The notes under the pieces were generated by a model. That model was given only the letters and a program-made list of their open reading frames with translations, was not told the DNA's origin and did no database searches. Below, in pieces: positions 3,613 through 55,827 of a DNA stretch of 64,000 bases. Source of the DNA: an uncultured bacterium (lineage in GTDB: Bacteria > Omnitrophota > Omnitrophia > Omnitrophales > Aquincolibacteriaceae); assembly GCA_964434115.1 (NCBI GenBank), contig CAYSSX010000004.1:175688-239687 (forward strand). Reading direction: 5' to 3'. Within the stretch, counting starts at the first letter, position 1. Every line of letters begins with the position of its first letter. The position numbers and the translations under genes are program-made.

Positions 3613-4520
3613 GCGCGCATTTTAGAACGGTACCGGGTACCATTCAAGGCATTTGGTACCTGGTACCGTTCGGCGGGGACTGTTCCAAAAACTTTTTTCA
3701 GGACAGCGGGCGTAAGAACTTTCTTTTTCTCTCCGCAGGCCGCAAACTTTCCGGCTTTGAGGATCAGGCCATGGGTAAAGAAAGGGAGAATGTCTTCCAG
3801 GTGATGGGTCACAAGCAAAAGAGACGGGGCCTTGGGGCTTCGCGCGAGACGGGACAAAAACCCGTAGAGGGAAAACCGGGCGCCCATATCAAGGGCTGAA
3901 AAAGGTTCATCCAGGATCAAGACTTTGGGTTCTGCCATAAGTGCCCGGGCAATGCCTACTTTGAGCTGTTCCCCTGAAGAAAGATTCTCAAACGGCGTGA
4001 ACTCGAAACGGTACTGGGTACCTTTTGGGCCCTGGTACCCGGTACCGTTCAGGCAGCCGAGCTGGCGAAGTTTAGACCGAACCTTGGAACGCAGCGCGGG
4101 GGTAATTTTGTCATGATACGCGGTGCAGCCCTCGGTTCCGGCAGCCACGACCTCAATCACGGTTTCACCTCCCCGGACATGCTTTGGGACCCACGGCGCC
4201 ACATACCCGATCTTCTTACGGAGTTCCGGAAGGTTGGTCTTGCCATACGTCTCTCCCATGACCTGCACGGTTCCACGCGTGGCCCAGAGATAACCCATGA
4301 CCACTTCCAGAAGCGAAGTCTTGCCGGAACCATTGGGACCCAGGATAAACCAATGTTCCTTGGCCTTTACCGTCCAATTCACGCCCTGAAGGACCTTTCT
4401 TCCAGCTCTCGTTAAATAAATGTTTGAGAGGTGAAGGACAGGCAGATTTGTGGGGACAGGTTTAAAAACCTGTCCCCGATCTCCTCGCTCGGCGGTTCTT
4501 TTGCTTACGGATTTTTTCAC
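3609..4520 (-). CDS. ABC transporter ATP-binding protein (ModF-like, orphan ATPase) carrying two in-frame palindromic-repeat insertions
   Basis: Walker A GPNGSGKTS, signature FENLSSGEQ, Walker B VLILDEPFSALD, H-loop LVTHH. The annotated start GTG 4520 lies 58 nt inside the ArfB coding sequence and reads through palindrome 4452..4477, so the true start is probably downstream (~4443..4470). Residues LNGTGYQGPKGTQYRFEF (element 4010..4046) and the C-terminal GTVPAERYQVPNALNGTRY (element 3629..3667) are encoded by GGTACC repeat elements. Confidence 0.75.
   Translation of the reverse strand: MKKSVSKRTAERGDRGQVFKPVPTNLPVLHLSNIYLTRAGRKVLQGVNWTVKAKEHWFILGPNGSGKTSLLEVVMGYLWATRGTVQVMGETYGKTNLPELRKKIGYVAPWVPKHVRGGETVIEVVAAGTEGCTAYHDKITPALRSKVRSKLRQLGCLNGTGYQGPKGTQYRFEFTPFENLSSGEQLKVGIARALMAEPKVLILDEPFSALDMGARFSLYGFLSRLARSPKAPSLLLVTHHLEDILPFFTHGLILKAGKFAACGEKKKVLTPAVLKKVFGTVPAERYQVPNALNGTRYRSKMRA
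3629..3667. repeat. GGTACC-type palindromic repeat element copy (GGTACCGGGTACC-13 nt-GGTACCTGGTACC), inside the 3' end of the ABC ATPase CDS
   Basis: Two 13-mers, each made of two GGTACC hexamers 1 nt apart; same architecture as the other copies listed below. Confidence 0.8.
4010..4046. repeat. GGTACC-type palindromic repeat element copy (GGTACTGGGTACC-11 nt-GGTACCCGGTACC), in-frame inside the ABC ATPase CDS
   Basis: Imperfect 13 bp terminal inverted repeats. Located between the Q-loop region and the LSGGQ signature of the ABC domain and read through in frame. Confidence 0.8.
4452..4477. repeat. Palindrome GGGGACAGG-TTTAAAAA-CCTGTCCCC (core module shared with 10274..10299 and 55781..55809)
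   Basis: 9 bp arms identical to the arms of the 26 bp palindrome at 10274..10299. Sits in the ArfB/ABC ATPase overlap region. Confidence 0.6.
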
Positions 4521-4836
4521 GTTTTAGTTCCGATGCTGTTTTGAAAGGGGGCATACCTAAAGGCATGCCCCCATGATCCCTTTGCCAAATTTCAAATTTT
4601 TCAAGCATCACCCGGCGCGCAAAAAAGCGGTTCGCATGCTGGGAGCGTTCCTTCTGCATTTTCACTTCAAGACCCGAGGGACGGTGCTTTAGATAAACAC
4701 AGGTCGCGGTCTTGTTCACATTCTGACCTCCGCTGCCCCCGGAACGAATAAACTTCTCTTCAAGGTCGGCTTCCAAAAGCCCGGCCTTCTTCATCTGTTC
4801 CGCGAGTTCCTTCACCTTTTCCGGCCCAACACTCAT
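4462..4836 (-). CDS. arfB: Alternative ribosome-rescue factor ArfB (peptidyl-tRNA hydrolase, class I release-factor-like GGQ domain)
   Basis: 124 aa, ...IRSGGSGGQNVNKTATCVYLKH... GGQ motif plus a basic C-terminal tail KREKIRKQKNRRARR. RBS AGGA upstream of ATG 4836. Confidence 0.8.
   Translation of the reverse strand: MSVGPEKVKELAEQMKKAGLLEADLEEKFIRSGGSGGQNVNKTATCVYLKHRPSGLEVKMQKERSQHANRFFARRVMLEKFEIWQRDHGGMPLGMPPFKTASELKREKIRKQKNRRARRSGTGF
4539..4565. other. Hairpin GGGGGCAT-N10-ATGCCCCC inside the 3' end of arfB
   Basis: 8 bp G-rich stem seen directly. It is translated as ...HGGMPLGMPP... in ArfB, so it may be RNA structure within coding sequence rather than a terminator. Confidence 0.3.
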
Positions 4837-4847
4837 TTTTTCCTAAG

Positions 4848-4913
4848 GGTACCGGGTACCCATTGCTGCTTGCGCTGAAATGCTAACCGATACGTTGAAG
4901 GGTACCCAGTACC
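4848..4913. repeat. GGTACC-type palindromic repeat element copy (GGTACCGGGTACC-40 nt-GGTACCCAGTACC) plus a half-site GGGTACCC at 4934..4941
   Basis: Intergenic, immediately upstream of the arfB start. Same terminal 13-mers as the other copies. Confidence 0.75.
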
Positions 4914-5065
4914 CGTGGTGAACATTTCCTTACGGGTACCCATCAACCTGCTCTTTGCGGAGACGAAACCGTCAAGGTTTCGCGAGCACGATGAAGTCAT
5001 TGGGACTTCATCGCCAGCCTCTACCCCTTGTGGGTAAGGGATCTATAAAGTGCCGGGCCAAAAGT

Positions 5066-5131
5066 TTTCCGCCGCGAGTTCCGCAGGAGCGAAGCGACGA
5101 GGACTGTCTGAGCGCCGGAAAATTCTTTGGA
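5066..5131. repeat. Copy 2 of the ~57-60 bp conserved repeat (see 2969..3036)
   Basis: TCCGCCGCGAGTTCCGCAGGAGCGAAGCGACGAGGACTGTCTGAGCGCCGGAAAA. The internal hairpin is kept as GTTCC-GCA-GGAGC (a U-G wobble if read as plus-strand RNA). 82 nt 3' of the ABC-2 permease stop. Confidence 0.6.
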
Positions 5132-5216
5132 CCGGCACCGTTTCCTCCATTTTGTGAGCCGAACGCTCCAGGAAGACAACTATGCGTCTCAGCGATCCAG
5201 CCATTTCCGCCCCCGC

Positions 5217-6023
5217 CTATTCCATTCCGGCACGTACCAACCGCCCCGTCTCCATCGCCCGCCCATAAACCCAATGAAAGAAAACCACGGCCGCGAGAAA
5301 AAACAGCCCATTCAACCCCAGCCCTGTCCAAAAAGACGACGCGCTGAGCGTTTGCCCGGCCAGCACGGCCCGCATGCCTTCAAACACATACGTGCTCGGC
5401 AGACAAAGCGAAATGGCCTGCACCCACGCGGGCATGACAGAAAGCGGGTAAAAAATCGCGGACAACGGCTGCAGCAAAAATGGAATGCCCCAGATCAGGG
5501 CCTCGGCCGCGTAACCCCACCAAAGAAGCATGGACGAAGTGAAGATGCCGAGGATCCAGGCAAACAAAAGCAAATTAAACACCAAGGGAATCAAAGAAAA
5601 CCCAAGGTCTCCGGCGATATTGAATTGATAAAGGAAAAAACACAGCACGGCCAGCACCGCGGTGATGATCAGGGATTTCAGAAAACCGTAAAGAAAGGTC
5701 GCCATCAGCCATTCCCACAAACGGAGAGGTGAAATCAAAATATTCAGAAGGTTGTGATGCCAGATTTCTTCCATCACGGAAATCGTGACCGCCTGCTGAT
5801 TGCGGTAAAGAATGTCCCAGAAAATCATGCCGCCGAGAAACGCGAACACCAGCCCGCCCTTCAGGCCCGGCGCGAAACTGCGCAGATAAATGGTGAGAAA
5901 GCCCCAGACAAAAAGGTCCATCACGGGCCAGAACACCAGTTCCAAAGTGCGCGGCAGGCTGCGGCGGTGAAGATAAAGGTAGCGGGAAAGCATGGCGTGA
6001 ATGCGGGTCAGGGAACCTTTCAT
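5217..6023 (-). CDS. ABC-2 type exporter permease
   Basis: Start MKGSLTRIHAMLSRYLYLHRR... at ATG 6023 overlapping the ATPase stop (ATGA); 6 predicted TM helices typical of ABC-2 permeases. The ORF-track extension to 6170 is upstream read-through. Confidence 0.8.
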   Translation of the reverse strand: MKGSLTRIHAMLSRYLYLHRRSLPRTLELVFWPVMDLFVWGFLTIYLRSFAPGLKGGLVFAFLGGMIFWDILYRNQQAVTISVMEEIWHHNLLNILISPLRLWEWLMATFLYGFLKSLIITAVLAVLCFFLYQFNIAGDLGFSLIPLVFNLLLFAWILGIFTSSMLLWWGYAAEALIWGIPFLLQPLSAIFYPLSVMPAWVQAISLCLPSTYVFEGMRAVLAGQTLSASSFWTGLGLNGLFFLAAVVFFHWVYGRAMETGRLVRAGME

Positions 6024-7298: not shown

Positions 7299-7311
7299 GG
7301 TACCGGGTACC
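7299..7311. repeat. Solo GGTACCGGGTACC 13-mer (half element)
   Basis: Identical to the terminal repeat of the GGTACC element family. Intergenic between 7217 and 7314. Confidence 0.6.
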
Positions 7312-7313: not shown

Positions 7314-7838
7314 TTAAAGCGTTTCTCCGAGAACGGTTTCGCCGCAGGATTCCGAGGCCGTGGCACAGCTGTCCACACGGGGCGTGGCCAAAGTGGTTTT
7401 CACGGCTTCCAGGTTGGGCCTGTCCGCGGGAATAATGCGGGTCACAAAAAAGCTATCAGGATTATCCAGCGGCCGTTTCACCGCCACAAGGGCCGGAACT
7501 TCTTTATAAATCCGCAGGCTTTCCGGCGATTGCTTATAGGCAAAAGAGGTTTCAGGAGGAATAGAACTCTTCAAATATTCGGGTGTTTGAAAAGTCACGC
7601 GGGTCAAGGGAATGGTCACGCCCCGCTGGACCGTGCGCGCAAGAAAGGCGGTGTCCAGCTTCGCGGTAAAGACCGCGTCCGCGGCGCGGGCTTCGGCCAA
7701 AAAGTTTTCACGGTCTTCGGTGCTGGTGTAGGGCATCTCGGCCGCTGACGCGTCCGCCGGGGCCGGATCCGCGGCAAAGGCCGGGGCAAGGGCTGAGAAA
7801 AAGAGGATTGCGATTGAAGAAAATAAAAGGTTTTTCAT
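7314..7838 (-). CDS. Secreted hypothetical protein with signal peptide (MKNLLFSSIAILFFSALAPAFA)
   Basis: RBS GGAGAGG upstream of ATG 7838. The ORF-track extension to 7973 runs through the next gene. Confidence 0.55.
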   Translation of the reverse strand: MKNLLFSSIAILFFSALAPAFAADPAPADASAAEMPYTSTEDRENFLAEARAADAVFTAKLDTAFLARTVQRGVTIPLTRVTFQTPEYLKSSIPPETSFAYKQSPESLRIYKEVPALVAVKRPLDNPDSFFVTRIIPADRPNLEAVKTTLATPRVDSCATASESCGETVLGETL

Positions 7839-7857
7839 AGCCCCTCTCCGTGAATAG

Positions 7858-8076
7858 TTAAATCGACAAAAAATAAATTCCGGCCGCCACAAGACTGACG
7901 CCTCCCGCCACAAAAAAAACCGTTCCCATCTTCCGCGCGGAATCATCAAAAAAATCAGACGTTTCAAACTCACTGAAATGTTTGTGATAGTTCCTGTAAA
8001 AAAGCAGCGGGCCGATCACGAGCGCAGCGCCGATCAGAACCAGAATCCAGCCCAGTATTTTTGAGGATTGCAGCAT
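7858..8076 (-). CDS. Small membrane protein (72 aa, 2 TM)
   Basis: Hydrophobic ORF starting 7 nt downstream of the acetyl-CoA synthetase stop. Confidence 0.4.
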   Translation of the reverse strand: MLQSSKILGWILVLIGAALVIGPLLFYRNYHKHFSEFETSDFFDDSARKMGTVFFVAGGVSLVAAGIYFLSI

Positions 8077-8082: not shown

Positions 8083-10224
8083 TTAAGCCCCCGGGGGAAG
8101 GTCCACAAGGATGCGGTGATCAATCACCGCGCAGCCTTCACCCTTGTTGTAAACAAAAAGCGGATTGATATCGAGTTCCGCGATTTCAGGACATTCCATC
8201 GCGAGCTGGGAAAGCCGCTGAAGGCATTCGGCGATCTTTTCAAGGTCCGCGGGTTTTTCGCCGCGCACGCCTTCCAGAATTTTAAAACTCTTGATGTCAT
8301 GAATCATATGCTGGGCGCTGAGCTGGACAATCGGCGCAACCCGGAACGTCACGTCCTTCATGACTTCCACATACGTTCCGCCAAGCCCGAACATGAGCGT
8401 GGGGCCAAACAACGGGTCTTTGTTAAGGCCCAGAATCACTTCGCGGCCCTTGGGCGCCATTTTCTGGACCGTGACGCCAAGGATGTTCGCGTCCGGATGA
8501 GACTTGGCGATGCGCGTGATCATTTCTTCCGCTGCCTTTTCGACGTCTTCCGGAGTCTTAATATTCAGGGCCACGCCGCCCACATCAATTTTATGCAGGA
8601 TCTGCGGAGAACTGATCTTCACCACCACCGGACAGCCGATTTCACGGGCCGCTTCGCCCGCGGCCTTGGCGTTAGGCGCGAGTTTCATGGGCAGAAGCGG
8701 GAAACCGTAGGCCTCAAGGACTTCCCTGACTTCATAATCATAAAGGGCGCTGCGCTTTTCCTTCACCGCTTTCTCAACCACCTTCCTCGCGCGCGCTTTA
8801 TCCACGGTGTAGGTGATGACTTGGGTGCGCGGCCGGCTCATCCACTCGCCGTACTGAACCATATGCGACAGGGTACGCGCCGCGGATTCGGGGAAGCGGT
8901 AGGCGGGCATATTCCATTTTTCTTCCAGCACTTTCACGCCGCCGGAAACATCCACAATGCCCATAAAACACGCGAGCACGGGCTTCTCGGATTTACTGCT
9001 GATGCGCCCCACGACTTCGGCGATTTCTTCAATGTCGGTCATGGCCTGCGGTGTCAGAATCACAATGACCGCGTCCACCCCCTCTTCTTTCAAAACAATT
9101 TCAAGCGCGGCTTCATAGCGTTCATGCTGGGCGTCGCCGATCACATCAATCGGGTTATTAAAATTCGCGGTGGAGGGAAGGTGTTTGCGGAGTTCCTGCT
9201 TGGTCGGTTCTGAAATTTCGGCCATCTCAAGGCCGTAGCGCACGCAGGCGTCGGTCGTCATAATGCCCGGCCCGCCGGCGTTCGTGACAATGGCGACGCG
9301 GTTTCCCTTGGGAAGTTTGCGGAGCGCGAACGCCTGGGCGTAATCAAAAAGTTCCTGCACGGTTTCCACGCGGAGAATTCCGCCCTGCTCAAAAATCGCG
9401 TTGTAAATTTCATCCGAACCTGCGAGCGCGCCGGTGTGAGACGACGCGGCCTTGGCGCCCTGCAGCGTACGGCCCGCCTTGATCGCGAGAATGGGTTTGC
9501 AGATTTGGGCATCCCCCGTGATCTTGCGCGCGAGCTGGACCATCTCCCGGGGGTGTGAAAGATTTTCCAGGTACATGAGGATGACATCGGTCTCTTCATC
9601 GTTACCGAGGAATTCCAGAAGCTCCAGCTCCGTGACGTCCGCCTTGTTGCCCATGCTGATAAATTTGGAGAACCCGATGTTCGCGCCCTTCGCGTAATCC
9701 AGCACCGACGTGCAGAGCGCTCCGCTCTGAGAAATAAAGGCAATGCGCCCGCGCTTCGGCATGGCGCGCCCAAAAGAAGCGTTCATCGCGATCTTGGGGT
9801 CGGTGTTGATAAGCCCCAGGCAGTTCGGGCCCAGAAGCGGGATGCCGTTTTTCCGGGCAAGCCCGGTGATTTGTTTTTCAATAAGCGCGCCCGCCTCGCC
9901 CACTTCTTTAAAGCCCGCGGAAATAATCACCGCCGCTTTCACGCCCTTGGCGATACACGCGTTGAAAGTTTCAAGGCTCGCTTCCGCGTGAACAATCAAA
10001 ATCGCAAGATCCACGGGATCGGGAATTTCAGAAACCGATTTGTAACAGCGCACGCCCATGATGCTGAGCGCCTTGGGGTTCACAGGGTAAAGCACGCCCT
10101 GGTAACCGCCCGTGATCAGGTTTTTAAAGACCGCGTGCCCGACGGCCTCGGGCCTGCGGGACGCGCCGATCACGGCAATGCTTTGGGGATTGAAAATAAA
10201 ATGAAGCGGATGTTTCGAGGTCAT
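8083..10224 (-). CDS. Acetyl-CoA synthetase, ADP-forming (fused alpha-beta; CoA-binding + succinyl-CoA-synthetase-like + ATP-grasp domains)
   Basis: ...NPQSIAVIGASRRPEAVGHAVFKNL... CoA-binding N-terminus and a C-terminal ATP-grasp domain. Likely start MTSKHPLHF at ATG 10224. The ORF-track N-terminus MVPFTIGTGNMLPVPAVSGTF (to 10317) is encoded by the repeat element 10258..10315 and is probably not real. Confidence 0.85.
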   Translation of the reverse strand: MTSKHPLHFIFNPQSIAVIGASRRPEAVGHAVFKNLITGGYQGVLYPVNPKALSIMGVRCYKSVSEIPDPVDLAILIVHAEASLETFNACIAKGVKAAVIISAGFKEVGEAGALIEKQITGLARKNGIPLLGPNCLGLINTDPKIAMNASFGRAMPKRGRIAFISQSGALCTSVLDYAKGANIGFSKFISMGNKADVTELELLEFLGNDEETDVILMYLENLSHPREMVQLARKITGDAQICKPILAIKAGRTLQGAKAASSHTGALAGSDEIYNAIFEQGGILRVETVQELFDYAQAFALRKLPKGNRVAIVTNAGGPGIMTTDACVRYGLEMAEISEPTKQELRKHLPSTANFNNPIDVIGDAQHERYEAALEIVLKEEGVDAVIVILTPQAMTDIEEIAEVVGRISSKSEKPVLACFMGIVDVSGGVKVLEEKWNMPAYRFPESAARTLSHMVQYGEWMSRPRTQVITYTVDKARARKVVEKAVKEKRSALYDYEVREVLEAYGFPLLPMKLAPNAKAAGEAAREIGCPVVVKISSPQILHKIDVGGVALNIKTPEDVEKAAEEMITRIAKSHPDANILGVTVQKMAPKGREVILGLNKDPLFGPTLMFGLGGTYVEVMKDVTFRVAPIVQLSAQHMIHDIKSFKILEGVRGEKPADLEKIAECLQRLSQLAMECPEIAELDINPLFVYNKGEGCAVIDHRILVDLPPGA

Positions 10225-10257
10225 GTCAAACCGTGTCTTTCCGGGGGGTTCTAAAAA

Positions 10258-10315
10258 GGTACCGCTTACCGCGGGGACAGGTAACATGTTACCTGTCCCT
10301 ATGGTAAACGGTACC
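10258..10315. repeat. GGTACC-type palindromic repeat element, full copy (GGTACCGCTTACC - 26 bp perfect palindrome GGGACAGGTAACATGTTACCTGTCCC - GGTAAACGGTACC)
   Basis: Imperfect 13 bp terminal inverted repeats flank a perfect 26 bp palindrome at 10274..10299. Intergenic between the pirin stop and the Acd start. Confidence 0.8.
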
Positions 10316-10316
10316 A

Positions 10317-11018
10317 TTACGCGAGATCAAAAATTAAAACTTCAGCACCTGCCGCGCCTGCCTTGAAGGAAATTTCCAATTCGTTTTCAAAAGAGGCCCC
10401 GTCTCCCTGTTTCAGATTTTCCCGGGCCAGGTGAATCTCGCCCTTGGCCACCTGCAGCCACGCGTAACGGGAAGGGTTCATCGGGTAACGAAGTTCCACA
10501 TCGGAACCCGGACGGGCCAAAAGAAGCACGGCATCCTGATGGATTTTCATGGACCCTTCGCGCGCGTCCGGGGAAGCCACCACGCAAAACCCGTCTTTTC
10601 CCGCATCAGCGCCAAAGGCCTTTTGCTCATAGCCCGGTGTCAGCCCGCGTTTGTCCGGCATGATCCAGATTTGCAGGAGGTGAAGGGTCTCCGTGTCCGA
10701 AGGGTTGATTTCGCTGTGCGTGATTCCGGACCCGGCCGTCATGCGCTGGGCCTCGCCTTTTTCAATAATGCCTTTTTGGCCCGTACTGTCCTGATGCTGG
10801 ACCCGGCCTTCCAGAATATAAGTGATGATTTCCATGTCGCGGTGGGAATGCGGGTGAAAACCATTGGAGGGCAGGACCTTGTCATCATTGATCACACGCA
10901 GAGAACGGAACCCCATATACCGCGGGTCATGGTAATCCCCGAAGGAAAAGCTGTGATAACTCTCAAGCCAGTCGATCTTGGTGCGGCCCCGTTCATGGCC
11001 GCGGCGAAGATGAATCAT
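10317..11018 (-). CDS. Pirin-family cupin protein (quercetin 2,3-dioxygenase-like)
   Basis: ...FGDYHDPRYMGFRSLRVINDDKV...HPHSHRDMEIITYILEG... pirin N-terminal cupin His motif. Confidence 0.85.
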   Translation of the reverse strand: MIHLRRGHERGRTKIDWLESYHSFSFGDYHDPRYMGFRSLRVINDDKVLPSNGFHPHSHRDMEIITYILEGRVQHQDSTGQKGIIEKGEAQRMTAGSGITHSEINPSDTETLHLLQIWIMPDKRGLTPGYEQKAFGADAGKDGFCVVASPDAREGSMKIHQDAVLLLARPGSDVELRYPMNPSRYAWLQVAKGEIHLARENLKQGDGASFENELEISFKAGAAGAEVLIFDLA

Positions 11019-18002: not shown

Positions 18003-18578
18003 TTAAGCCCCGATTTTCTGCAGAAGTTTCGCGACCTGAGCGCCCACGTTTTCAACCATGCTCTGCATCTTCGCGTCTTTCAAGGACCCATCCGCCTGAA
18101 ACGCCTCATGCGCTGAAGAAACAGCCGCCTGATCGGGCACCACAAGGACTTGGATGTTTCCGAGCATGGCACGCACATGCACCAGCCCGCGAAGGCCGCC
18201 AAGTTTACCCGGAGAGGCGCTCACAAGCCCTGCTGTTTTTCCCGCAAAACAAGCCAGCGATTTTTCGCCCGGCAGAGGGCGCGAAACCCAATCGAGCGTG
18301 TTTTTGAGAAGCGGCGTGATGGAGCTGTTGTATTCGGGGCAGGAAAGAAGCAAGCCCTGATGGGACAGGAAAAGAGCTTTGAGCTTCTTTACATTTTCGG
18401 GAAACCCGCGGGCTTCAAGGTCTTCATCAAATACGGGCAGCGGAAAATCGCGAAGGTCAATCACCAGGACCTCCGCCCCGGCCTTCCGCGCTCCAGCCGC
18501 GGCAATTTGAATCAGTTTTTTGTTAAAAGAATCCTGCCGGGAACTACCGGCAAAAGCAAGGATACGCGGCTGGCTCAT
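18003..18578 (-). CDS. NAD(P)H-dependent FMN reductase (flavodoxin-like fold)
   Basis: MSQPRILAFAGSSRQDSFNKKL... ; RBS AAAAGGGG. Confidence 0.8.
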   Translation of the reverse strand: MSQPRILAFAGSSRQDSFNKKLIQIAAAGARKAGAEVLVIDLRDFPLPVFDEDLEARGFPENVKKLKALFLSHQGLLLSCPEYNSSITPLLKNTLDWVSRPLPGEKSLACFAGKTAGLVSASPGKLGGLRGLVHVRAMLGNIQVLVVPDQAAVSSAHEAFQADGSLKDAKMQSMVENVGAQVAKLLQKIGA

Positions 18579-18644
18579 AAAAACCCCTTTTATGGTTGAA
18601 TGCTGGCAGCGGGGACCTTCCGTGTCAGGCTGCGCCGCCTTGTT

Positions 18645-19370
18645 TTAGGCCGCGGCCGGGGGAACCGTGGAAGCGAATTTCTGCTGGGCCTGCTTGAGAA
18701 TGCCGGTTTCAGCAGCCGGGTATTGTTTAATCATTTTCGAAAGGCTTTCACGGGTTTGGGGAACCACTTTTTTCGTAAACTCCTGGATAAATTCTGCGAA
18801 TGCTTTTTTGAACGCATCGGAGTTCGGCCCGCTGAGGGATTTCACTTCCTCCCCGGCTTTGGCGGAGAGCTGACTGCCCAGATCCTGCTGAAATTTCTCC
18901 GTGAAAAGGCGGTCCAGATCCGCTTCCGCGGCTTTGACCCGAGCCAAGGTGGTGACCGCATTTTTTTCGGGAAATTCAAAAGAAACTCCTATATCCAGAG
19001 GAAGCAGGGCTCCCTGTTTTTCCCGTAAAGTGTAGAAAAAGGTGTACTTCCCAAGCTGAAGGCGGTCCTTTTCCTTCCCCTCTTCATCCGGTATGGAAAG
19101 GATTACTTTTAAACTGATCGTGTACCGGAGTTCCATCTTGTGCACGGCGCTTTGAAGGTCTCTTTTGATTTCCTGTTCGCTCGCAGTGGTCAGAATTTCC
19201 GATTTACGCTCCGCATCCTGCGCAAGAATCTTAAAATTCGGCCCATTCTTCAAGAGTTCTTCCGCACGAAGAAGCGTTGCCTGGCTCTGCGGCTCAGCAG
19301 CCTCAACGGCCGCCTGAGAAAAACTCACCCCTAAAAAAACAGCACTCATGACAACCCAAATCTTTTTCAT
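18645..19370 (-). CDS. Secreted hypothetical protein (signal peptide MKKIWVVMSAVFLGVSFSQA)
   Basis: Strong RBS AAGGAGG upstream of ATG 19370. Confidence 0.5.
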   Translation of the reverse strand: MKKIWVVMSAVFLGVSFSQAAVEAAEPQSQATLLRAEELLKNGPNFKILAQDAERKSEILTTASEQEIKRDLQSAVHKMELRYTISLKVILSIPDEEGKEKDRLQLGKYTFFYTLREKQGALLPLDIGVSFEFPEKNAVTTLARVKAAEADLDRLFTEKFQQDLGSQLSAKAGEEVKSLSGPNSDAFKKAFAEFIQEFTKKVVPQTRESLSKMIKQYPAAETGILKQAQQKFASTVPPAAA

Positions 19371-19384
19371 TATTTCCTCCTTGA

Positions 19385-20182
19385 TTAACGGAACCAGCTT
19401 TGGAGCGTCTGACGGGCCTGGTCCACCATGACCTTGGCCTGATTTTCAAGACTGTGCTGCAGATCATCGAGCTGGGCGTTTACAGCCATAAGGCCCAGCT
19501 TCTTCAGCACCATCACTACAATCTGCTCGGTCACGCTTGCCGGATCCGTGACATTCTGGAGCTGAAAGTTCTGAATGTTCACGTTCAAGCTTCTCTCCAC
19601 GAATTTATCCTTCGAAGTATCCACATACCTCGCGCGGCCGATACTCACCATCACCCGGTCCACCTGGGTTGTAATCCTGCGCCCGGGTTTCGGTTTTGCG
19701 GGCCCTTTGCTTTCCGGAGGCGGACCGCCCGGAGCGGGAGCCTTCCCCTGATTTTGCGCGTCTTTTTTGTTCTGATTCAGTTTTTGAATCAACTCGTTCA
19801 GATTGATTTTGCCCTGCGCATTTTTTTCAATCGTGATCTCTTCAATGTGGATCCTGATTTCCCGCACGTGAATGCGGCCTTTCAGAATGGCCAGCGGATT
19901 CATTTCAAAATAAATTTCGGGCAGCGACGCAAGGACGGGTTCACGGAACCCCTTCGGATTATGGATCTTGATCCCGTACAGGCCAAGCTTAACCGGATAA
20001 AGATTGACGTAAAAGCGGCTCACCGACACACGCGTGCCAATCGCCTGTTCCAGCATGCGGCCTGTAATTTCGCTCACCGCCGCCTGCGATGAAAAAATAG
20101 CGGCGAGTAAAAAGCCGCCCGTCAAAAACCAGCGCTTCCGCGGAAAAATCCAGTTAAAAAGAGAAAGCGTAAACGGTCCCAT
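19385..20182 (-). CDS. Membrane-anchored hypothetical protein (N-terminal TM, Pro/Lys-rich linker)
   Basis: RBS GAGGAG upstream of ATG 20182. Confidence 0.5.
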   Translation of the reverse strand: MGPFTLSLFNWIFPRKRWFLTGGFLLAAIFSSQAAVSEITGRMLEQAIGTRVSVSRFYVNLYPVKLGLYGIKIHNPKGFREPVLASLPEIYFEMNPLAILKGRIHVREIRIHIEEITIEKNAQGKINLNELIQKLNQNKKDAQNQGKAPAPGGPPPESKGPAKPKPGRRITTQVDRVMVSIGRARYVDTSKDKFVERSLNVNIQNFQLQNVTDPASVTEQIVVMVLKKLGLMAVNAQLDDLQHSLENQAKVMVDQARQTLQSWFR

Positions 20183-20191
20183 AAAAACTCC

Positions 20192-37187: not shown

Positions 37188-37334
37188 ACAACAATTTCCT
37201 AAGGGGGGTCATGAAAAGTTGGTCAGCCTTTCTTTGACTGTGCCTACTATACTGCAACGAACGTGCCTTTTAAATAAAAACTTTCCAAAACTCTTGCCGA
37301 CGGTCCCTCCCCTTCGAAAGGGCTCCCCAAGACC

Positions 37335-39821
37335 TTAACGGGCCTTTGGCTTGGAAAAAGGGATTTTCCAGATCTCCCGGGCGTATTCGGTAATCGTCCG
37401 GTCACTTGAAAATTTGCCGGAACGGGCCACGTTCAGAATGGCCTTTTTCGTCCATTCCTCGGGGTTGAGGTAAGCGGCGGAGATTTTCTGCTGAATGGCG
37501 CAATAGGCATCAAAATCCGCGCAAACCAGAAAAGGGTCGGAGTGCATGAGGTTATCGATAAGCGGCATGAACATCCCCGGATCCACGGGAGAAAAAAAGC
37601 CGCTTTTGAGCATTTTGAAGATCTCTGCCAATACCGGAGAGCGGGCAATAAAATCCTGCGGGACATACCCTTTTTCCTGAAGGGCCCGGACTTCATCCGC
37701 CTTAAGGCCAAAAGTGAAAATATTCTCCGCGCCTACGGCCTTGGCCATTTCGATGTTCGCACCATCCAGCGTTCCCACGGTCAAAGCGCCATTGACCATA
37801 AACTTCATGCATCCGGTTCCGGAAGCTTCCGTCCCCGCCGTGGAAATTTGCTCTGAAAGATCACTGGCCGGAAAAACGTTCTCCGCCAGGGAAACCCTGT
37901 AATTCTCCAGGAAAATAATTTTCATCTTATCGCCGATGGCTTTGTCGTGATTCACCACATCCGCAATATTGGAGATAAATTTGATTATGAGTTTCGCCAT
38001 GGCGTAACCCGGCGCCGACTTGCCCGCGAATAAAAAAGTCCTCGGCACGTGCGGCTTCTTGCTGTTTTCCTTGATCTTCAGATACTCGGAAATAATGTAG
38101 AACGCAAAAAGGGTCTGCCGCTTGTATTCGTGGATGCGTTTGATCTGAACGTCAAAAATAGATTCCGGGTTCACACGGACCCCGTTCAAATCAAGAATCG
38201 TCTTCGCGAAATCCGCCTTGTTGGCCTGTTTGATCTTTGCCCATTTTTCGCGGAACGCCGCGTCATCTTTATGCGGGGTAAGCTTTTCAAGCTCGTAAAG
38301 ATCCGTGACCCAGCTGCCGCCGATGGTTTCATCGATCAGGGAGGAAAGTCTCGTATTGGCGTTTTTCAGCCACCGCCGCTGCGTGATGCCGTTGGTTTTG
38401 TTGTTGAATTTCTCCGGATAAAATTCGTGGAAATCCCGGAAAAGGTCGGTTTTAAGAAGCGTGGAATGCAGTTCCGAAACGCCGTTGACGGAATGACTGC
38501 CAACGATCGCGAGGTAAGCCATCCGCACGCGCTTCTGATTCCCTTCTTCAATAATCGACATCCGCTTCAAGCGCGCCGTGTCGCCGGGATAATGGTTCGC
38601 GACCTCGCGCAAAAAACGGGCGTTGATTTCATAAATCAACTGCATGTGGCGGGGCAGGAGCTTTTCAAAAAGCGGCGCGGCCCAGCACTCCAAAGCTTCG
38701 GGCATCACCGTGTGGTTGGTATAGGCAAAGGTGCGCACGGTCGTGTCCCAGGCCGTTTCCCAGTCCAGACGCTCTTCATCCAGAAGAACGCGCATGAATT
38801 CCACCACCGCGAGCGCGGGATGCGTATCGTTAAGCTGAATGGCCGCCTTTTCGGGAATCTCGCGAAGGTCCGTGTTCTCCGCCTTGAAGCGGCGGATAAT
38901 ATCCGTGACCGCCGCGGCCGTAAAAAAGTACTCCTGTTTCAGACGGAGTTCACGCCCCATCGAATTGGCATCATTCGGATAAAGAACCTTGGAGATGTTT
39001 TCTGAAAACATCTTGTTGTAGACGGCCTTTTCATAGTCCCCGTGGTTGAAATACTCGAAATCAAATTCTTCGGAACCCCGGGCGGACCAAAGACGGAGCG
39101 TGTTAACCACATCGTTCTGGTATCCGGGCACCGGCGTGTCATAAGGCATGGCGACGACGTCCTGGGTGTTCCGCCACTCCACGCAAAGTTTTCCGTTCTT
39201 GTCGTGGTACATGTACGTGTCGCCGTAGAAACGGACGGTCACGGCATATTCCGGTCTCGGAAACTCCCAAGGGTTGCCGTGCTTGAGCCATTCATCGGGA
39301 AATTCCACCTGATGGCCTTCGACAATTTTCTGATTAAAAATGCCGTAGTCATACCGGATCCCGTAACCGTGCCCGGGAATCCCCAGCGTGGCCATGGAAT
39401 CGAGAAAACACGCGGCCAAACGGCCAAGCCCGCCGTTACCAAGACCCGCGTCCGGTTCTTCGTCGCGGATAAATTCAAAATCCAGATTCATTTCCTTCAG
39501 CGCTTCCTTGGCCGGCTGAAGCAGGTTGAGATTAAGCATGTTGTTGCTCAGAAGACGTCCGATCAAAAACTCCATCGAAAGATAATAAACTCGCTTCGCA
39601 TTTTTCTTGTGATATTCCTGCTGGGTTTTGATCCAGCGTTCCACGATGCGGTCGCGGACAGCAATGGAAAGCGCCATAAAATCATCATGCGTCGTGGTGG
39701 TGAATCGGTCTTTGGCGAGCTGGTAAAAAAGGCTGGAGCTGAAGGAGGTCCGCATGCCCTCTTTGGTCATGTCTTTGTAAACGACTTCCCAGGGTTCCTG
39801 AGCGGGCTTATGCTTTGACAT
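37335..39821 (-). CDS. glgP: Glycogen/maltodextrin phosphorylase (GT35)
   Basis: 828 aa; ...EFPDEWLKHGNPWEF..., ...TNHTVMPEALE..., PLP-site region ...EASGTGCMKFMVNGALTVGTLDGANIE... Confidence 0.95.
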   Translation of the reverse strand: MSKHKPAQEPWEVVYKDMTKEGMRTSFSSSLFYQLAKDRFTTTTHDDFMALSIAVRDRIVERWIKTQQEYHKKNAKRVYYLSMEFLIGRLLSNNMLNLNLLQPAKEALKEMNLDFEFIRDEEPDAGLGNGGLGRLAACFLDSMATLGIPGHGYGIRYDYGIFNQKIVEGHQVEFPDEWLKHGNPWEFPRPEYAVTVRFYGDTYMYHDKNGKLCVEWRNTQDVVAMPYDTPVPGYQNDVVNTLRLWSARGSEEFDFEYFNHGDYEKAVYNKMFSENISKVLYPNDANSMGRELRLKQEYFFTAAAVTDIIRRFKAENTDLREIPEKAAIQLNDTHPALAVVEFMRVLLDEERLDWETAWDTTVRTFAYTNHTVMPEALECWAAPLFEKLLPRHMQLIYEINARFLREVANHYPGDTARLKRMSIIEEGNQKRVRMAYLAIVGSHSVNGVSELHSTLLKTDLFRDFHEFYPEKFNNKTNGITQRRWLKNANTRLSSLIDETIGGSWVTDLYELEKLTPHKDDAAFREKWAKIKQANKADFAKTILDLNGVRVNPESIFDVQIKRIHEYKRQTLFAFYIISEYLKIKENSKKPHVPRTFLFAGKSAPGYAMAKLIIKFISNIADVVNHDKAIGDKMKIIFLENYRVSLAENVFPASDLSEQISTAGTEASGTGCMKFMVNGALTVGTLDGANIEMAKAVGAENIFTFGLKADEVRALQEKGYVPQDFIARSPVLAEIFKMLKSGFFSPVDPGMFMPLIDNLMHSDPFLVCADFDAYCAIQQKISAAYLNPEEWTKKAILNVARSGKFSSDRTITEYAREIWKIPFSKPKAR

Positions 39822-39912
39822 TGTTTACCTTTCTTCCTCGAAGGAAATTCACGGGGGAAGATTAACAGATTTAAAAGGAACCATTCAAGAATGAATTCTT
39901 AGCACCTGGAGT

Positions 39913-41889
39913 CTAACCCTCGTGCAAAAAGAAAACCGCCGAAAGCGGCGGAAGATCCAGATGCAAAGAATGCGGCTGATGATGCCACGGCACGGATTCC
40001 CCGGGGCGTCCGCCCTGGTTGCCGCTGCCGCTGCCTCCGTAATCATCCGCGTCGCTGTTGAAAATCTCCCGGTACCATCCGTCCCACGGAACCCCCACAC
40101 GGTACCCCAGCCGGGGAACGGGCGTCATGTTAAAAACACACACCACCGGTTTGCTGCGCCCTTTCGCCCAGCGCACAAAACTCACCACGCTGGAATCCCG
40201 GTCGGAAAAATCAATCCACTGAAATCCCTCCGGCGAAAAATCCAGCTCATGAAATGCGGCGAGATCGCGGTGGCAGCGGTTTAAATCGCGGACAAGACGG
40301 CCCCAGGCCTTAAAAATAGGCACGGGCGCAAGATGCCAATCCATGGAATGGCGGCAATTCCACTCCGCCGGCTGGCCGACATCCGCGGTCATAAATAAAA
40401 GCTTTTTTCCCGGGTGCGCGTACATATAAGAAAGGAAGAGCCTCGCGTTGGCCCAGCGCTGCCAGTCATCGCCCGGCATTTTTTCAAGAAGCGATTTTTT
40501 TCCATAAACCACTTCGTCATGCGAAACCGGAAGAATAAAGTTCTCGGTGAACGCGTAGAGCATGGAAAAGGTCAGCATGTCCTGATGAAACCGGCGGTGC
40601 ACGCATTCTTTGGAAAAATAATCCAGCGTGTCATGCATCCAGCCCATGTTCCATTTCATGCTGAAGCCGAGCCCACCCGCGTAGGTCGGCCTTGAAACAC
40701 CGGTCCAGGCGGTGGACTCCTCGGCAATCGTCAAGACTCCGGGATACCGCTCATGCACCACTTCATTGAACCGTTTGAGAAAACTGATCGCCTCAAGGTT
40801 CTCATTGCCGCCGTATTGATTCGGCTGCCACTCTCCCGGCGCGCGGGAATAATCCAGGTAAATCATGGAAGCCACCGCATCCACACGCAGTCCGTCGAGG
40901 TGATACTGATCCAGCCAGAACAGCGCGTTGGACATAAGAAAGTTCCGGACCTCGTTACGTCCGTAATCAAAAACCAGGGTTCCCCACTCCCGGTGCTCGC
41001 CCTTTTTCCAATTGTCATAGGCGTAAATCTGGCGGCCGTCAAAATCCGCGAGGCCGTGAGCGTCTTTTGGAAAATGCGCGGGAACCCAGTCCAGGATCAC
41101 GCCCAGCCCATGACTGTGGCAGGTGTCCACAAAAAACATAAAATCTTCCGGAGATCCAAAACGGCTGGTCGGCGCAAAGTAGCTGATGACCTGATAACCC
41201 CAGGATTCATCCAGCGGATGCTCGCTGATCGGCATCAATTCAAGGTGCGTATAACCCCGCTCAATCGCAAAAGGAATAAGTCTTTCGGCCAGTTCCCGGT
41301 AAGTCAGAAAGTCCTCTCCCTTTTCTCCGGTCCGCATCCAGGAACCCAAATGCACTTCATAAATGGAGACAGGCCCTTCCAAAGGGTTGCGCGCCGCGCG
41401 GGTTTTCATCCAGGCGTCATCGTTCCATTTGAACTTTTGAAGGGCTGCCACCACCGAAGCGGTCCGGGGACGGACTTCGGTCTGAAAGGCATAGGGATCG
41501 GATTTAAAAAAAACATGCCCTTCCGGCGTCTCGACCGCGAACTTATAAAAGGTTCCTTCCACGAGACCGGGAATAAAGCCGTCCCAAAAACCCGACCCGG
41601 GAAGGCGGCGAAGGGGGTTCGCTCCGGACTTCCACAGGTTAAAATCACCCACCACACTGACAGAACGGGCGTTCGGCGCCCAGAGCGAAAAATAAGTTCC
41701 CGGTTTTTTTTCCGTCACGCAGACATGCGCGCCCAGTTTCCGGTAACTATCGAAATGGTTTCCCTCGCCCAGCAAATGGAGGTCAAAACCCGTCAGCCTT
41801 GTTTCTTCCAAAAGAGGAAGGGTTTTGGAGACAGCCGCCGCTTTCGGGCGCCTTACGGCACGTGCTGGGGGACGCGTTTTTCTTTTCAC
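39913..41889 (-). CDS. glgB: 1,4-alpha-glucan branching enzyme (GH13_9)
   Basis: ...GFDLHLLGEGNHFDSYRKLGAH..., ...LGVILDWVPAHFPKD..., ...YDYGRNEVRNFL...; the GGTACC hexamers at 40069..40110 are coding coincidences (GY/WY codons). Confidence 0.9.
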   Translation of the reverse strand: MKRKTRPPARAVRRPKAAAVSKTLPLLEETRLTGFDLHLLGEGNHFDSYRKLGAHVCVTEKKPGTYFSLWAPNARSVSVVGDFNLWKSGANPLRRLPGSGFWDGFIPGLVEGTFYKFAVETPEGHVFFKSDPYAFQTEVRPRTASVVAALQKFKWNDDAWMKTRAARNPLEGPVSIYEVHLGSWMRTGEKGEDFLTYRELAERLIPFAIERGYTHLELMPISEHPLDESWGYQVISYFAPTSRFGSPEDFMFFVDTCHSHGLGVILDWVPAHFPKDAHGLADFDGRQIYAYDNWKKGEHREWGTLVFDYGRNEVRNFLMSNALFWLDQYHLDGLRVDAVASMIYLDYSRAPGEWQPNQYGGNENLEAISFLKRFNEVVHERYPGVLTIAEESTAWTGVSRPTYAGGLGFSMKWNMGWMHDTLDYFSKECVHRRFHQDMLTFSMLYAFTENFILPVSHDEVVYGKKSLLEKMPGDDWQRWANARLFLSYMYAHPGKKLLFMTADVGQPAEWNCRHSMDWHLAPVPIFKAWGRLVRDLNRCHRDLAAFHELDFSPEGFQWIDFSDRDSSVVSFVRWAKGRSKPVVCVFNMTPVPRLGYRVGVPWDGWYREIFNSDADDYGGSGSGNQGGRPGESVPWHHQPHSLHLDLPPLSAVFFLHEG

Positions 41890-53894: not shown

Positions 53895-54431
53895 TTAGCT
53901 GTGTTCAACTTTGACGAGGATATAACTGTCTTCCTGGCCGGGGATTTTTTTGAGGAACAATTTCATTTTATCTTTGCCCGGAGAGTCCCAGGACTTGATG
54001 CCGAAGGTTTCAATGGGGTTGCGAACCGCGACCTTGAGCCATTCTTTTTCTTCTTCCTGCTCAGGCTCTTCAAAATCCAGGGTCAGAAGTTTAAGCGCCT
54101 TACGGCCTTTGGCCGCTTCTTTCATTTGTTGAAACTTGGTGGGGCCTTGAAGTTTAATCTTTCCAAACTGCCCGCGGAAGGTTCTTTTAATCAGGAAAGA
54201 CACCACAGCCTGCGGATTGGCACGGTTCTCGGGATTATTTTCAACAGCATCGATCACTGTTTTCGGACTTAACGCTTTGACCCGCACGGGAACAGCCACA
54301 ACACCAATGTCATAATCCGAGGCGTCATAAACAGGCAAACCGTCAGGGGCGGTTTCCGCGGCTGCCGGTAAAACTTGAAAAATAAAGACCGCAAAAAAAA
54401 CAGCGGCAAAGCTCAAAAGGGTCTTTTTCAT
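53895..54431 (-). CDS. Secreted hypothetical protein (signal peptide)
   Basis: MKKTLLSFAAVFFAVFIFQVLPAAA... Confidence 0.5.
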   Translation of the reverse strand: MKKTLLSFAAVFFAVFIFQVLPAAAETAPDGLPVYDASDYDIGVVAVPVRVKALSPKTVIDAVENNPENRANPQAVVSFLIKRTFRGQFGKIKLQGPTKFQQMKEAAKGRKALKLLTLDFEEPEQEEEKEWLKVAVRNPIETFGIKSWDSPGKDKMKLFLKKIPGQEDSYILVKVEHS

Positions 54432-54495
54432 ATTTCTCGCTTTCGCAGGGAATCCGGAATTTTATCCTCAAAACCTTTTCATGCCAAGGAAAAGA

Positions 54496-55752
54496 CTAGG
54501 TATTTTTGACCCGCCGGGCGGCTCCGGCCGCGGCCGTGACACCGCTCGACCAGGCCCATTGAAAGTTAAACCCCCCGATACGGCCGTCCACATCCAGGAT
54601 CTCCCCGGCAAAGAAAAGGCCCGGCTGCAGGCGTGATTCCATGGTGGCGTCATCGACTTCTGTCAAATCCACGCCCCCGGCCGTCACTTCAGCCTTGGCA
54701 TAGCCGGCGGACCCGCTGACCGAAAGAGAAGCCCGGAGAATTCCCTTCACCAGCGCTTCGCGTTCCTCCCGGGACACCTGATTCATAATCCGGTTCTCCG
54801 GAAGCCCTGCCTTTTTAATCAGCATGACCGCCAGTTTTTCCGGAAGTTCCAGGGCCAGAAAATTTTTCACCATCATTTTCGGATTTTCTGAGAGGGCCCC
54901 GGCCAGCGCCTTGCGTAAATCATCTTCATGAAGCGCGGGCAGAAAATTCGCGGTCAGAACCGCGGACGCATCGTTAAGACGGATCCAATGCCTGCTGATA
55001 TTCAAAACCACAGGGCCGCTGTAGCCCGTATGTGTAAAAAGAAACGAGCCTTCATACTCGACGTTTTTTTCTTTTCCCGCGTAAAGCGTGAGGCGCACCG
55101 GTAAGGTCACGCCGGACAGGCTTTTCCAATCCGCATCAGCGGTCAAAAGCGGGGTCAGCGAAGGCGATGTCGGAATAAGCGAATGCCCAAAGGCCTGTGC
55201 CAGCGCGTAACCCGATCCATCAGAACCGCTGGTAGGAAAAGACAACCCTCCGGTGCAAAGCACCACGGTTTTCGCCTGACACACTGCCCCGGCCTGGGCT
55301 TTCACGTTAAAAACAGAACCTTCCCGCTGAACACTCTCCACTTTAAAACCGGTCACAAGATTGACACCTATACGGGCCGCTTCGCGCGTCAGTGCTTCAA
55401 GCACCGTACGGCCTGAATGCGTGGCCGGAAAATACTTTCCGCCCGGTTCCAGCACCAGCTCCACCCCCAATTTTTGGAAAAACTCCACGGCCTTAGGCGC
55501 GGGAAAAGCCCTCAGCACATTCCTCACCTGCCTGATCTGCATGCTTTGAAAATCCCGCTCGCTGACCTTTTCATTCGTCACATTACAGCGGGTGCCGCCG
55601 GACATGAGAATTTTGGCGCCGATCTTTTCCCTTCCATCCAGAAGGAGCACGCTCAACCCCTGGGTTCGGGCCGAAATCGCGGTCATAAGGCCGGCCGCGC
55701 CGGCGCCTACCACCGCCATATCCGCCACTTCAGCCAGATTGTCTTGCATCAT
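54496..55752 (-). CDS. NAD(P)/FAD-dependent oxidoreductase, HI0933/BaiN-like family
   Basis: ...VVGAGAAGLMTAISARTQGLSVLLLDGREKIGAKILMSGGTRCNVTN...; likely start ATG 55752 (RBS GAAAGG). The ORF-track N-terminus MSPRYPVPLRKA (to 55788) is encoded by the repeat element. Confidence 0.85.
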   Translation of the reverse strand: MMQDNLAEVADMAVVGAGAAGLMTAISARTQGLSVLLLDGREKIGAKILMSGGTRCNVTNEKVSERDFQSMQIRQVRNVLRAFPAPKAVEFFQKLGVELVLEPGGKYFPATHSGRTVLEALTREAARIGVNLVTGFKVESVQREGSVFNVKAQAGAVCQAKTVVLCTGGLSFPTSGSDGSGYALAQAFGHSLIPTSPSLTPLLTADADWKSLSGVTLPVRLTLYAGKEKNVEYEGSFLFTHTGYSGPVVLNISRHWIRLNDASAVLTANFLPALHEDDLRKALAGALSENPKMMVKNFLALELPEKLAVMLIKKAGLPENRIMNQVSREEREALVKGILRASLSVSGSAGYAKAEVTAGGVDLTEVDDATMESRLQPGLFFAGEILDVDGRIGGFNFQWAWSSGVTAAAGAARRVKNT

Positions 55753-55765
55753 TGCCTTTCTTAAA

Positions 55766-55827
55766 GGTACCGGGTACCTAGGGGACACGTAACTTTGTTA
55801 CATTTCCCCAAGCAGGTACCCGGTACC
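55766..55827. repeat. GGTACC-type palindromic repeat element, full copy (GGTACCGGGTACC - GGGGACACGTAAC..GTTACATTTCCCC - GGTACCCGGTACC)
   Basis: Perfect 13 bp terminal inverted repeats; the central degenerate palindrome 55781..55809 is related to 10274..10299. Confidence 0.8.

Follow-up and report, generated by a model that had tools for sequence, protein, structure and literature searches.

A family of GGTACC hairpin elements in an uncultured Omnitrophota genome, probably dispersed repeats of the REP/REPIN kind

A family of short palindromic elements built from two GGTACC hexamers 1 nt apart was found in a 64-kb stretch of DNA from an uncultured Omnitrophota bacterium (contig CAYSSX010000004.1, positions 175,688 to 239,687); the whole stretch is referred to as the window. 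The elements are probably a non-autonomous, hairpin-forming dispersed repeat of the repetitive extragenic palindromic (REP) or REP doublet forming hairpin (REPIN) kind, whose copies come and go as species diverge. They form stable hairpins, occupy sites that are empty in close relatives, are read in frame within genes, and share their stem with elements of distant phyla.

Results

Arm motif and its enrichment in the window

The window was scanned for GGTACCSGGTACC with at most one mismatch, and the expectation was derived from 100 dinucleotide shuffles. Nine matches were detected, starting at 3629, 3655, 4010, 4034, 4848, 4901, 7299, 55766 and 55815, against a shuffle mean of 0.02; none of the 100 shuffles reached nine. 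The pair at 10258/10303 has two mismatches in each arm (GGTACCGCTTACC / GGTAAACGGTACC) and is genuine. The 11 GGTACC-N-GGTACC arms form five inverted pairs (E1, E2, E3, E5 and E6, in the order of their positions) and one solo unit. The initial annotation had listed the arms at these positions, and a scan with three mismatches added no copies beyond chance (21 matches versus 8 expected, the excess being the known arms). Its tally of seven perfect and four one-mismatch arms was corrected to seven perfect, two one-mismatch and two two-mismatch arms, measured against two GGTACC 1 nt apart. The hexamer alone was present 24 times; about 15 chance occurrences had been estimated earlier, and the shuffles gave 4.5. 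Nineteen of the 24 hexamers lie within or adjoin elements, and the remaining 5 correspond to the chance level.

The spacers between paired arms were 13, 11, 40, 32 and 36 nt, resulting in elements of 39, 37, 66, 58 and 62 bp, as the annotated ranges of 11–40 and 37–66 bp had implied. The annotated placement was also right: five loci, situated at 3.6–10.3 kb, and a sixth at 55.8 kb border genes or fall within open reading frames (ORFs). On the plus strand, every left arm has a central G and the right arms have a central C, or T in E1 only, which indicates that the pairs are truly inverted, though each 13-mer is near-palindromic. All six frames of the 13-mer are free of stop codons, as read from the sequence. 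Seven arms with at most one mismatch were located in the first 12 kb of the window and two in the other 52 kb. The motif was similarly enriched in a syntenic relative, L196 (L numbers denote the collected loci), with 10 arms per 20.7 kb at the same threshold, and in both genomes the copies cluster in one syntenic block of about 12 kb.

Hairpin formation and arm pairing

When folded as RNA, as the initial annotation had proposed, every doublet yielded a very stable hairpin (-26 to -45 kcal/mol, z -3.8 to -9.0). The determined energies were -29.2 kcal/mol (z -6.2) for E1, -26.3 kcal/mol for E2, -34 kcal/mol for E3, -42.6 kcal/mol (z -8.3) for E5 and -45.3 kcal/mol (z -9.0) for E6. The solo unit (7299–7311) had no stable fold alone (-8.4 kcal/mol, z -1.4). 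The arms were 13–18 nt long and 84–100% complementary, so that terminal inverted repeats are present; the E1 arms extend over 18 nt with 94% complementarity, and E5, taken as an inverted repeat, has 32-nt arms.

The E5-type arms carry the paired changes GCTTACC/GGTAAGC, by which the arms stay complementary and the individual 13-mers are no longer palindromic. These compensated changes with the loss of internal symmetry favour arm–arm pairing over two independent palindromic protein sites. At paired positions where both arms deviate, 45 Watson-Crick, 5 wobble and 10 mismatched combinations were counted over all loci. A strand-specific RNA structure was sought from G-U wobbles and rejected: the arm mismatches in the window were sense-compatible in two elements and antisense-compatible in two, therefore no strand is favoured. 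The wider wobble set is confounded by heptad arrays, which occur in several registers.

Filled and empty sites in related genomes

The gene order of the window, from the pyruvate kinase gene to the FeS-assembly gene, was the same in a 20.7-kb contig that was recovered twice (L196 and L197). L196 carries copies at four sites where the window has none: one of the E5 type at the junction of pyruvate kinase and GT87, a second E5-type element in the opposite orientation near 1597, a solo together with an E3-type element downstream of the acetyl-CoA synthetase (ACS) gene, and another E3-type element upstream of a BV97-family gene. Conversely, the window sites of E5, E2 and the solo unit are empty in L196, and E1 and E3 are common to both genomes. 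The E1 ortholog was found also in L123 and is decayed in L122. E3 orthologs with a conserved interior were detected in L122, L123 and L196, and E3 is absent in L125. Since the arms GGTACCGCTTACC / GGTAAACGGTACC are present at different loci in two genomes, they are a subfamily signature and not the result of local decay.

Compared with the empty sites, the elements are whole insertions of 37–135 nt. A target-site duplication was readable at none of four filled/empty pairs, where the flanking sequence is too diverged or prolongs the palindrome. Nor was a direct repeat seen beside the six window copies; instead, the palindrome continues into the flanks, as in AAC..GTT and AAG..CTT.

Two other features of L196 were observed. 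A 226-nt block (84% identical) that contains an E3-type element occurs twice, upstream of the ArfB-like gene and of the BV97-family gene. At 18004–20248, RnlA-toxin-like and SIR2-like genes that lie side by side beyond the ribonucleotide reductase genes form a possible defence pair; the synteny with the window stops earlier.

Copies inside coding sequences

E2 (4007–4049 with flanks, arms 4010–4046; aac-GGTACTGGGTACC-11 nt-GGTACCCGGTACC-gtt) is an in-frame insert of 39 nt in the ABC ATPase gene (3609–4520, minus strand), where its 13 codons encode NGTGYQGPKGTQY(R). In the protein alignment of homologs this segment was limited to the window protein and P0002 (84% identity). In homologs of 74–81% identity and in all more distant ones, ..GCL(H) runs directly into YEF. 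The DNA alignment showed the corresponding empty site, GGxTGCCTxCxxTAxGAxTT, in L123, L124 and L125, and the 39-nt insert in the window and L122. The two inserts have identical arms and different loops; their flanking triplets, AAC..GTT in the window and AAG..CTT in L122, represent a paired change that preserves an extended stem.

The solved homolog PDB 2ihy is without the E2-encoded segment. In the AlphaFold2 model of the ABC ATPase (mean predicted local distance difference test score 80), the segment is a small surface hairpin-like loop between helix 141–153 and the signature motif. The ORF reads through E1, and its final ~20 residues are therefore element-encoded; this tail is disordered in the model, as is the N-terminal part encoded by a second palindrome (4452–4477). 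The element-encoded residues thus appear, as judged from the model, to be placed in a loop and in disordered tails and to be tolerated by the ABC ATPase fold.

The linker before the basic tail of the ArfB-like protein is an insertion hot spot. In close relatives it holds nothing, a solo 13-mer (L124), a GGTACC doublet or other palindromes, in frame every time, and homologs below about 65% identity have no insert in the linker. Among the protein homologs collected, the nearest with taxon names were proteins from metagenome-assembled genomes (MAGs) of Omnitrophota and Verrucomicrobiota, with 45–57% identity. Outside the window's lineage, in-frame copies (ETVPGTGTVPGTD) were found inside two squalene/phytoene synthase paralogs of L176.

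Individual elements and their neighbouring genes

All the genes neighbouring the window elements are on the minus strand. E1 (3629–3667, or 3625–3671 with flanks; gaac-GGTACCGGGTACC-13 nt-GGTACCTGGTACC-gttc) sits between the ABC ATPase ORF and the DUF59/FeS-assembly gene (3052–3612, minus), 16 nt upstream of the ATG of the latter. E3, the long form (4848–4913; GGTACCGGGTACC-40 nt-GGTACCCAGTACC), stops 11 nt 5' of the ATG of the RF-1-domain (ArfB-like) gene (4462–4836, minus). The solo 13-mer GGTACCGGGTACC (7299–7311), which resembles a REP singlet, lies 2 nt past the stop of the ORF 7314–7973 (minus). E5, with variant arms (10258–10315, or 10255–10318 with flanks; GGTACCGCTTACC-32 nt-GGTAAACGGTACC), holds a nested GGGGACAGGTAAC..GTTACCTGTCCC palindrome and ends 33 nt 5' of the likely start (10224) of the ADP-forming ACS gene. 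E6 (55766–55827, or 55763–55830 with flanks; GGTACCGGGTACC-36 nt-GGTACCCGGTACC) encloses a GGGGACACGTAAC..GTTACATTTCCCC palindrome and ends 13 nt 5' of the ATG (55752) of a gene annotated by Pfam as an HI0933-like flavoprotein.

In the sense of the genes, the sequence immediately 3' of the hairpins resembles a ribosome-binding site (RBS), as in CTTAGGAAAAA-ATG and TTTAAGAAAGGCA-ATG. Each of the three E3-type copies of L196 is located directly 5' of the Shine-Dalgarno sequence (GGTACC-CTTAGGAG / CTTTAAAGGAG). The program-made ORFs 8083–10317 and 54496–55788 begin within E5 and E6, the likely true starts being 10224 and 55752, and the two elements thus produce false N-terminal extensions of the gene calls.

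The promoter and terminator scan of the window gave counts at the chance level (promoter-like matches: 3 versus 3.4 expected). One of the matches, TTGAAT-17-TAAAAT at 3619–3647 (minus), has its -35 box in the E1 loop and an E1 arm as the spacer. It would put the start of transcription near the ATG of the FeS-assembly gene, possibly resulting in a leaderless transcript, although such matches are overall at chance.

Distribution outside the lineage of the window

Perfect doublets, defined by 26 specified bases and a spacer of 4–34 nt, were detected in 69 stretches of JGI metagenome contigs, the estimated chance expectation being far below one. Viral contigs contained no perfect doublet, and nothing relevant was found in the plasmid and E. 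coli collections. Among the matches listed for genomes, perfect doublets were present in Halanaerobium isolates and MAGs, Planctomycetia, Omnitrophota, Gemmatimonadota, Elusimicrobia and one unclassified MAG. In Acidobacteriota/Thermoanaerobaculia, arrays of GGTACCG heptads oppose CGGTACC heptads.

The stem was constant across the metagenomic and genomic doublets, and the loops and outer flanks were lineage specific. The 53–57% GC subfamily, (G/A)AAC[13]AAATCTTAAA[13]GTTC, corresponds to the E1/E2 type of the window. A subfamily of about 65% GC from metagenome contigs, GAAACATC[13]GGAAC[13]GATGTTTC, occurs in both loop orientations (GGAAC/GTTCC). The others have TGGAAATAATTTCCA loops at 30–38% GC, TTTTCGGCCGAAAA loops at 44% GC and long loops at 70–75% GC. 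A Pfam survey of 130 ORFs adjoining the elements elsewhere yielded housekeeping families only, with no transposase enriched.

A loose scan of genome contigs (13-mer, N10–40 and GGTACC) was rejected as a source of copies; about 130 chance matches were estimated for it, and the matches listed were mostly heptad arrays, peptide-coding repeats or chance. Only true inverted pairs were retained from it. Tandem GGTACCG/GGTACCC heptad arrays of 4–7 units were observed in L093, L100, L101, L115, L117 and L120 (Planctomycetota, Chitinophaga, Acidobacteriota and Luteitalea MAGs), and in L053, L062 and L080 such arrays oppose complementary arrays, forming heptad-built hairpins. On a 44% GC metagenome contig (L165), a GGTACC doublet has group II intron domains (1267–1786; Rfam RF02001, RF01998, RF00029; E to 1e-13) at a distance of about 2 kb.

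Search for a mobilising enzyme

None of the 50 window ORFs scanned with Pfam encoded a transposase, and no parent insertion sequence (IS) with matching ends was found in the window or the collected loci. In the 1.3 Mb of collected loci, no gene of the REP-associated tyrosine transposase (RAYT; Y1/HUH) type was present except in L072, an unrelated MAG. The DNA of these loci was searched by tblastn with approximate IS200 TnpA and E. coli RAYT queries, and the single match was in L072 (41% GC). The matching ORF of 309 aa scored 30.3 bits with Pfam Y1_Tnp, above the cut-off of 23, and gave an E-value of 1.7e-18 with NCBIfam REP_Tyr_transpos, which is under the equivalog cut-off of that model. Its homologs form a family of about 300 aa labelled RayT in JGI.

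The RAYT-like gene of L072 is bracketed by ATGAAATA-GGTACCAGGTACC-TTTTGAAAGGGG, located 189 nt upstream and 570 nt downstream, and the GGTACCAGGTACC unit occurs at least 6 times in 8 kb. This gene is the sole lead to the mobilising enzyme. The association of GGTACC-N-GGTACC with a RAYT was thus seen once, with singlets in an unrelated lineage, and for the lineage of the window a similar association may be supposed. Directly after the GGTACCGGGTACC unit 3' of the RAYT-like gene, four tandem units of 15–17 nt, GGGTACCTTTTGAAAGG, were observed (5148–5228).

Other repeats and features of the window

A second palindrome family, GGGGACAGGT..ACCTGTCCCC, has a free copy at 4452–4477 and nested copies at 10272–10300 in E5 and 55780–55809 in E6. 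The free copy, inserted in frame where the ArfB-like and ABC ATPase genes overlap (aa RGDRGQVFKPVP), was shared by the window and L125 alone; in L122, a copy of this family occupies the E1 site. A third palindrome, GGGGGCATACCTAAAGGCATGCCCCC (4547–4572), is in frame in the ArfB-like linker (HGGMPLGMPPF), and similar copies were detected in L125 and also in L123, there downstream of the ATPase gene. The linker is a hot spot for insertion of several palindrome families.

A direct repeat of 64 nt (92% identical) is present in two intergenic regions, at 2968–3031 and 5065–5128. The 300-nt intergenic region 4914–5216 (minus) is rich in hairpins (-121.5 kcal/mol, z -3.2) and had no Rfam match. No tRNA genes were found in the window. 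The long minus-strand block 25614–41889, in which no GGTACC elements lie, is an ordinary gene cluster for storage polymers; encoded there are polyphosphate kinase, Ppx/GppA, a ROK kinase, GH57 enzymes, glycogen phosphorylase and a branching enzyme.

Discussion

The initial annotation read the GGTACC elements as a family of short palindromic repeats similar to miniature transposable elements with inverted repeats (MITEs), REPs or Rickettsia palindromic elements (RPEs). The presence and absence of copies at orthologous sites, the subfamily at different loci and the stable hairpins support this reading, most probably in its REP/REPIN form. The basic unit would be the near-palindromic 13-mer GGTACC-G-GGTACC, its mobile form would be the inverted doublet around a variable spacer, and the solos would be remnants or singlets. 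Copies would survive where the harm is small, mostly in short intergenic gaps and typically 11–33 nt 5' of a start codon beside the RBS. Within genes they would persist when the insert is a multiple of three and free of stops, contributing short loop peptides (GTGY.., VPGT..) as RPEs do. As to the mode of transfer, the hairpins might be mobilised in trans as single-stranded DNA by an HUH/Y1 (RAYT-like) transposase whose gene lies elsewhere in the genome, with no target-site duplication left behind; this part of the mechanism is proposed tentatively. After transcription the hairpins could perhaps behave as REPs do, forming intercistronic or 5'-proximal stem-loops with an effect on mRNA stability or on the translation of flanking genes.

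Several observations weigh against the REP/REPIN reading. Neither a RAYT nor another transposase was found in the lineage of the window, within the 64 kb and about 25 kb of relatives. The units of L072 are direct-orientation singlets with a central A, and the RAYT homologs in L199 and L200 have only GGTACCAGCTTC upstream and no tandem 13-mer; the RAYT link may therefore be specific to the lineage of L072. Five of the six window loci are packed into one 7-kb stretch. At no filled/empty pair was the insertion boundary or a target-site signature cleanly readable, and gain through recombination or gene conversion is not separable from transposition. A 5' GTAG tetranucleotide is a common feature of classical REPs; the GGTACC elements have no such head, and their arms open with (A)AC/AAG-GGTACC. 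Furthermore, the same stem across phyla conflicts with the inheritance of REPIN-RAYT systems, which are mostly vertically inherited and lineage specific according to bioRxiv 10.1101/2022.05.22.493013.

The best-surviving alternative, which we still regard as unlikely, is that the hairpins are selected cis-acting RNA modules (stabilisers, RNase processing sites or attenuators), kept or recreated for the transcripts of downstream genes. Such a role would agree with the position of four of the five pairs 11–33 nt 5' of a start codon beside the Shine-Dalgarno region, with the similar placement of all three E3-type copies in L196, with the conservation of E3 and its interior at the same site in three relatives, and with the very stable folds of all doublets. 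However, the coding copies (E2, the ArfB-like linker and the L176 synthases) are not so positioned, the wobble-compatible arm mismatches favour no strand (2 versus 2 elements), and a de novo origin fails to explain identical 13-mers or an identical variant subfamily at different loci. The data are equally compatible with exaptation of a mobile repeat, and given the position of the copies just 5' of RBSs, an exapted RNA role is plausible.

An improbable explanation is that the 13-mer is a word resembling an uptake signal or preferred in recombination and repair, which is spread by biased gene conversion, the inverted pairs being secondary, as in the DNA uptake sequence (DUS) of Neisseria. The motif is a short conserved word in inverted pairs with unrelated spacers, both between and within genes, which agrees with this explanation, and the missing transposase and target-site duplication as well as the clustering in one syntenic block of two genomes are consistent with it. 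The comparison with empty sites, however, revealed whole insertions of 37–135 nt instead of a build-up by point substitutions, and the density is low beyond the one block (2 arms in 52 kb). The same word at 30% to 75% GC in many phyla is also not expected of lineage-specific uptake receptors.

Still less probably, the 13-mers are operators of a dimeric transcription factor and the pairs serve cooperative repression of the downstream genes. In favour of this are the near-perfect palindromic form of the 13-mer, the location of most copies just 5' of genes, and the promoter-like TTGAAT-17-TAAAAT that overlaps E1. Nevertheless, promoter-like matches were at chance, and the centre-to-centre spacings of 24, 26, 45, 49 and 53 bp showed no helical phasing. 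The E5-type arms are mutually complementary yet lack the internal palindrome, copies are found in coding regions, close relatives differ in their sites, which are gained and lost, and the genes beside the copies have no function in common. Finally, a chance or low-complexity artefact, or arms that terminate a larger IS or transposon, as the initial annotation had allowed for, can practically be dismissed: heptad arrays and peptide-coding repeats with the 13-mer made up a large share of the loose-scan matches in unrelated genomes, but nine matches stood against 0.02 expected, the same DNA was found in independent assemblies, no transposase was encoded by the 50 window ORFs, and the arms are not the ends of a larger IS because they lie 11–40 nt apart with no ORF between them.

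The preferred reading of the elements as mobile REP/REPIN-like repeats has a wider and more speculative extension, which is rather doubtful at present. One hairpin-specific mobilisation system (a RAYT/HUH clade of its own or another enzyme), horizontally spread or very old, could use the GGTACC-S-GGTACC stem as its recognition module. It would have seeded lineage-specific REPIN-like families in at least 6 phylum-level groups (30–75% GC) and would routinely remodel proteins by insertion in frame. If true, this system would be a pan-bacterial counterpart of the RPEs. The identical 13-bp stem across phyla from 30% to 75% GC would surprise a specialist, being unpredicted by lineage-specific REP-RAYT co-evolution. 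A stem shared through a common enzyme would imply a horizontally moving hairpin-mobilising system, and a stem shared through convergence would imply a special property of GGTACC heptads.

Small palindromic repeats recur in bacterial genome evolution and form a layer of it that is poorly understood. The filled and empty sites in essential-type genes of an uncultured lineage well outside Rickettsia bear on how often selfish hairpins lengthen proteins. In practice, the elements break assemblies, yield false long ORFs (e.g. 8083–10317) and lengthen gene calls, such as that of the ABC ATPase tail, and they deserve attention during annotation.

Comparison with known systems

According to PMC3337134 and PMC3116915, a REPIN consists of two inverted REPs around a spacer and is mobilised by a RAYT. 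The GGTACC elements share with the REPs and REPINs of Pseudomonas fluorescens and E. coli, as these are described there, a unit that is a short imperfect palindrome, a hairpin formed by the inverted doublet and the occurrence of singlets, and likewise the non-coding, non-autonomous character and the lack of a target-site duplication. The RAYT-like gene flanked by GGTACC-N-GGTACC units in L072 adds to the likeness. In contrast, the GGTACC arms are just 13–17 nt long and consist of a tandem palindromic hexamer, the elements are not strictly extragenic (E2, part of E1, the ArfB-like copies and the L176 synthases), and the identical stem is found in many phyla.

In Rickettsia, RPEs are palindromic repeats that occur as in-frame insertions within genes (PMC10969869). 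The in-frame insertion into unrelated genes, tolerated by the fold, is common to both (E2, the ArfB-like linker and the L176 synthases). However, RPEs are about 100–150 bp long, are restricted to Rickettsia and encode a conserved peptide, whereas the GGTACC elements have 37–66 bp, are mostly intergenic and are readable in different frames (GTGY.. or ..VPGT..). With regard to sequence, the elements had no match in Rfam or the annotated collections; these checks are indirect, no RPE sequence having been compared.

MITEs such as Correia/NEMIS, Nezha and RUP are also short, non-autonomous and polymorphic, have terminal inverted repeats and often lie beside promoters or RBSs. In comparison with them, the GGTACC elements are several-fold smaller, almost the entire element is a stem-loop, and neither a target-site duplication nor a parent IS was found; for these reasons REP/REPIN and RPE fit better than a classical MITE. 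The Neisseria DUS and the Pasteurellaceae uptake signal sequence resemble the family in being conserved 10–13-mers that form inverted pairs with unrelated spacers at gene ends and within genes. They differ from it in that the GGTACC hairpins are inserted whole relative to empty sites, have a low and clustered density, and share their word among several phyla.

The initial annotation had recognised no described family in the motif, in accordance with the searches of Rfam, the literature and the plasmid, E. coli and viral collections. In Rfam, searched at the gathering level for the window and at the E-value level for the element regions and seven loci, nothing was matched on the elements, and the literature search for the 13-mers returned only primers and ribozyme or tRNA constructs. 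Since formal membership fails on several points (no GTAG, not strictly extragenic, no target-site duplication or parent IS), the family is described as one that works like REPINs and RPEs. It is best placed as a new family of the REP/REPIN-RPE kind.

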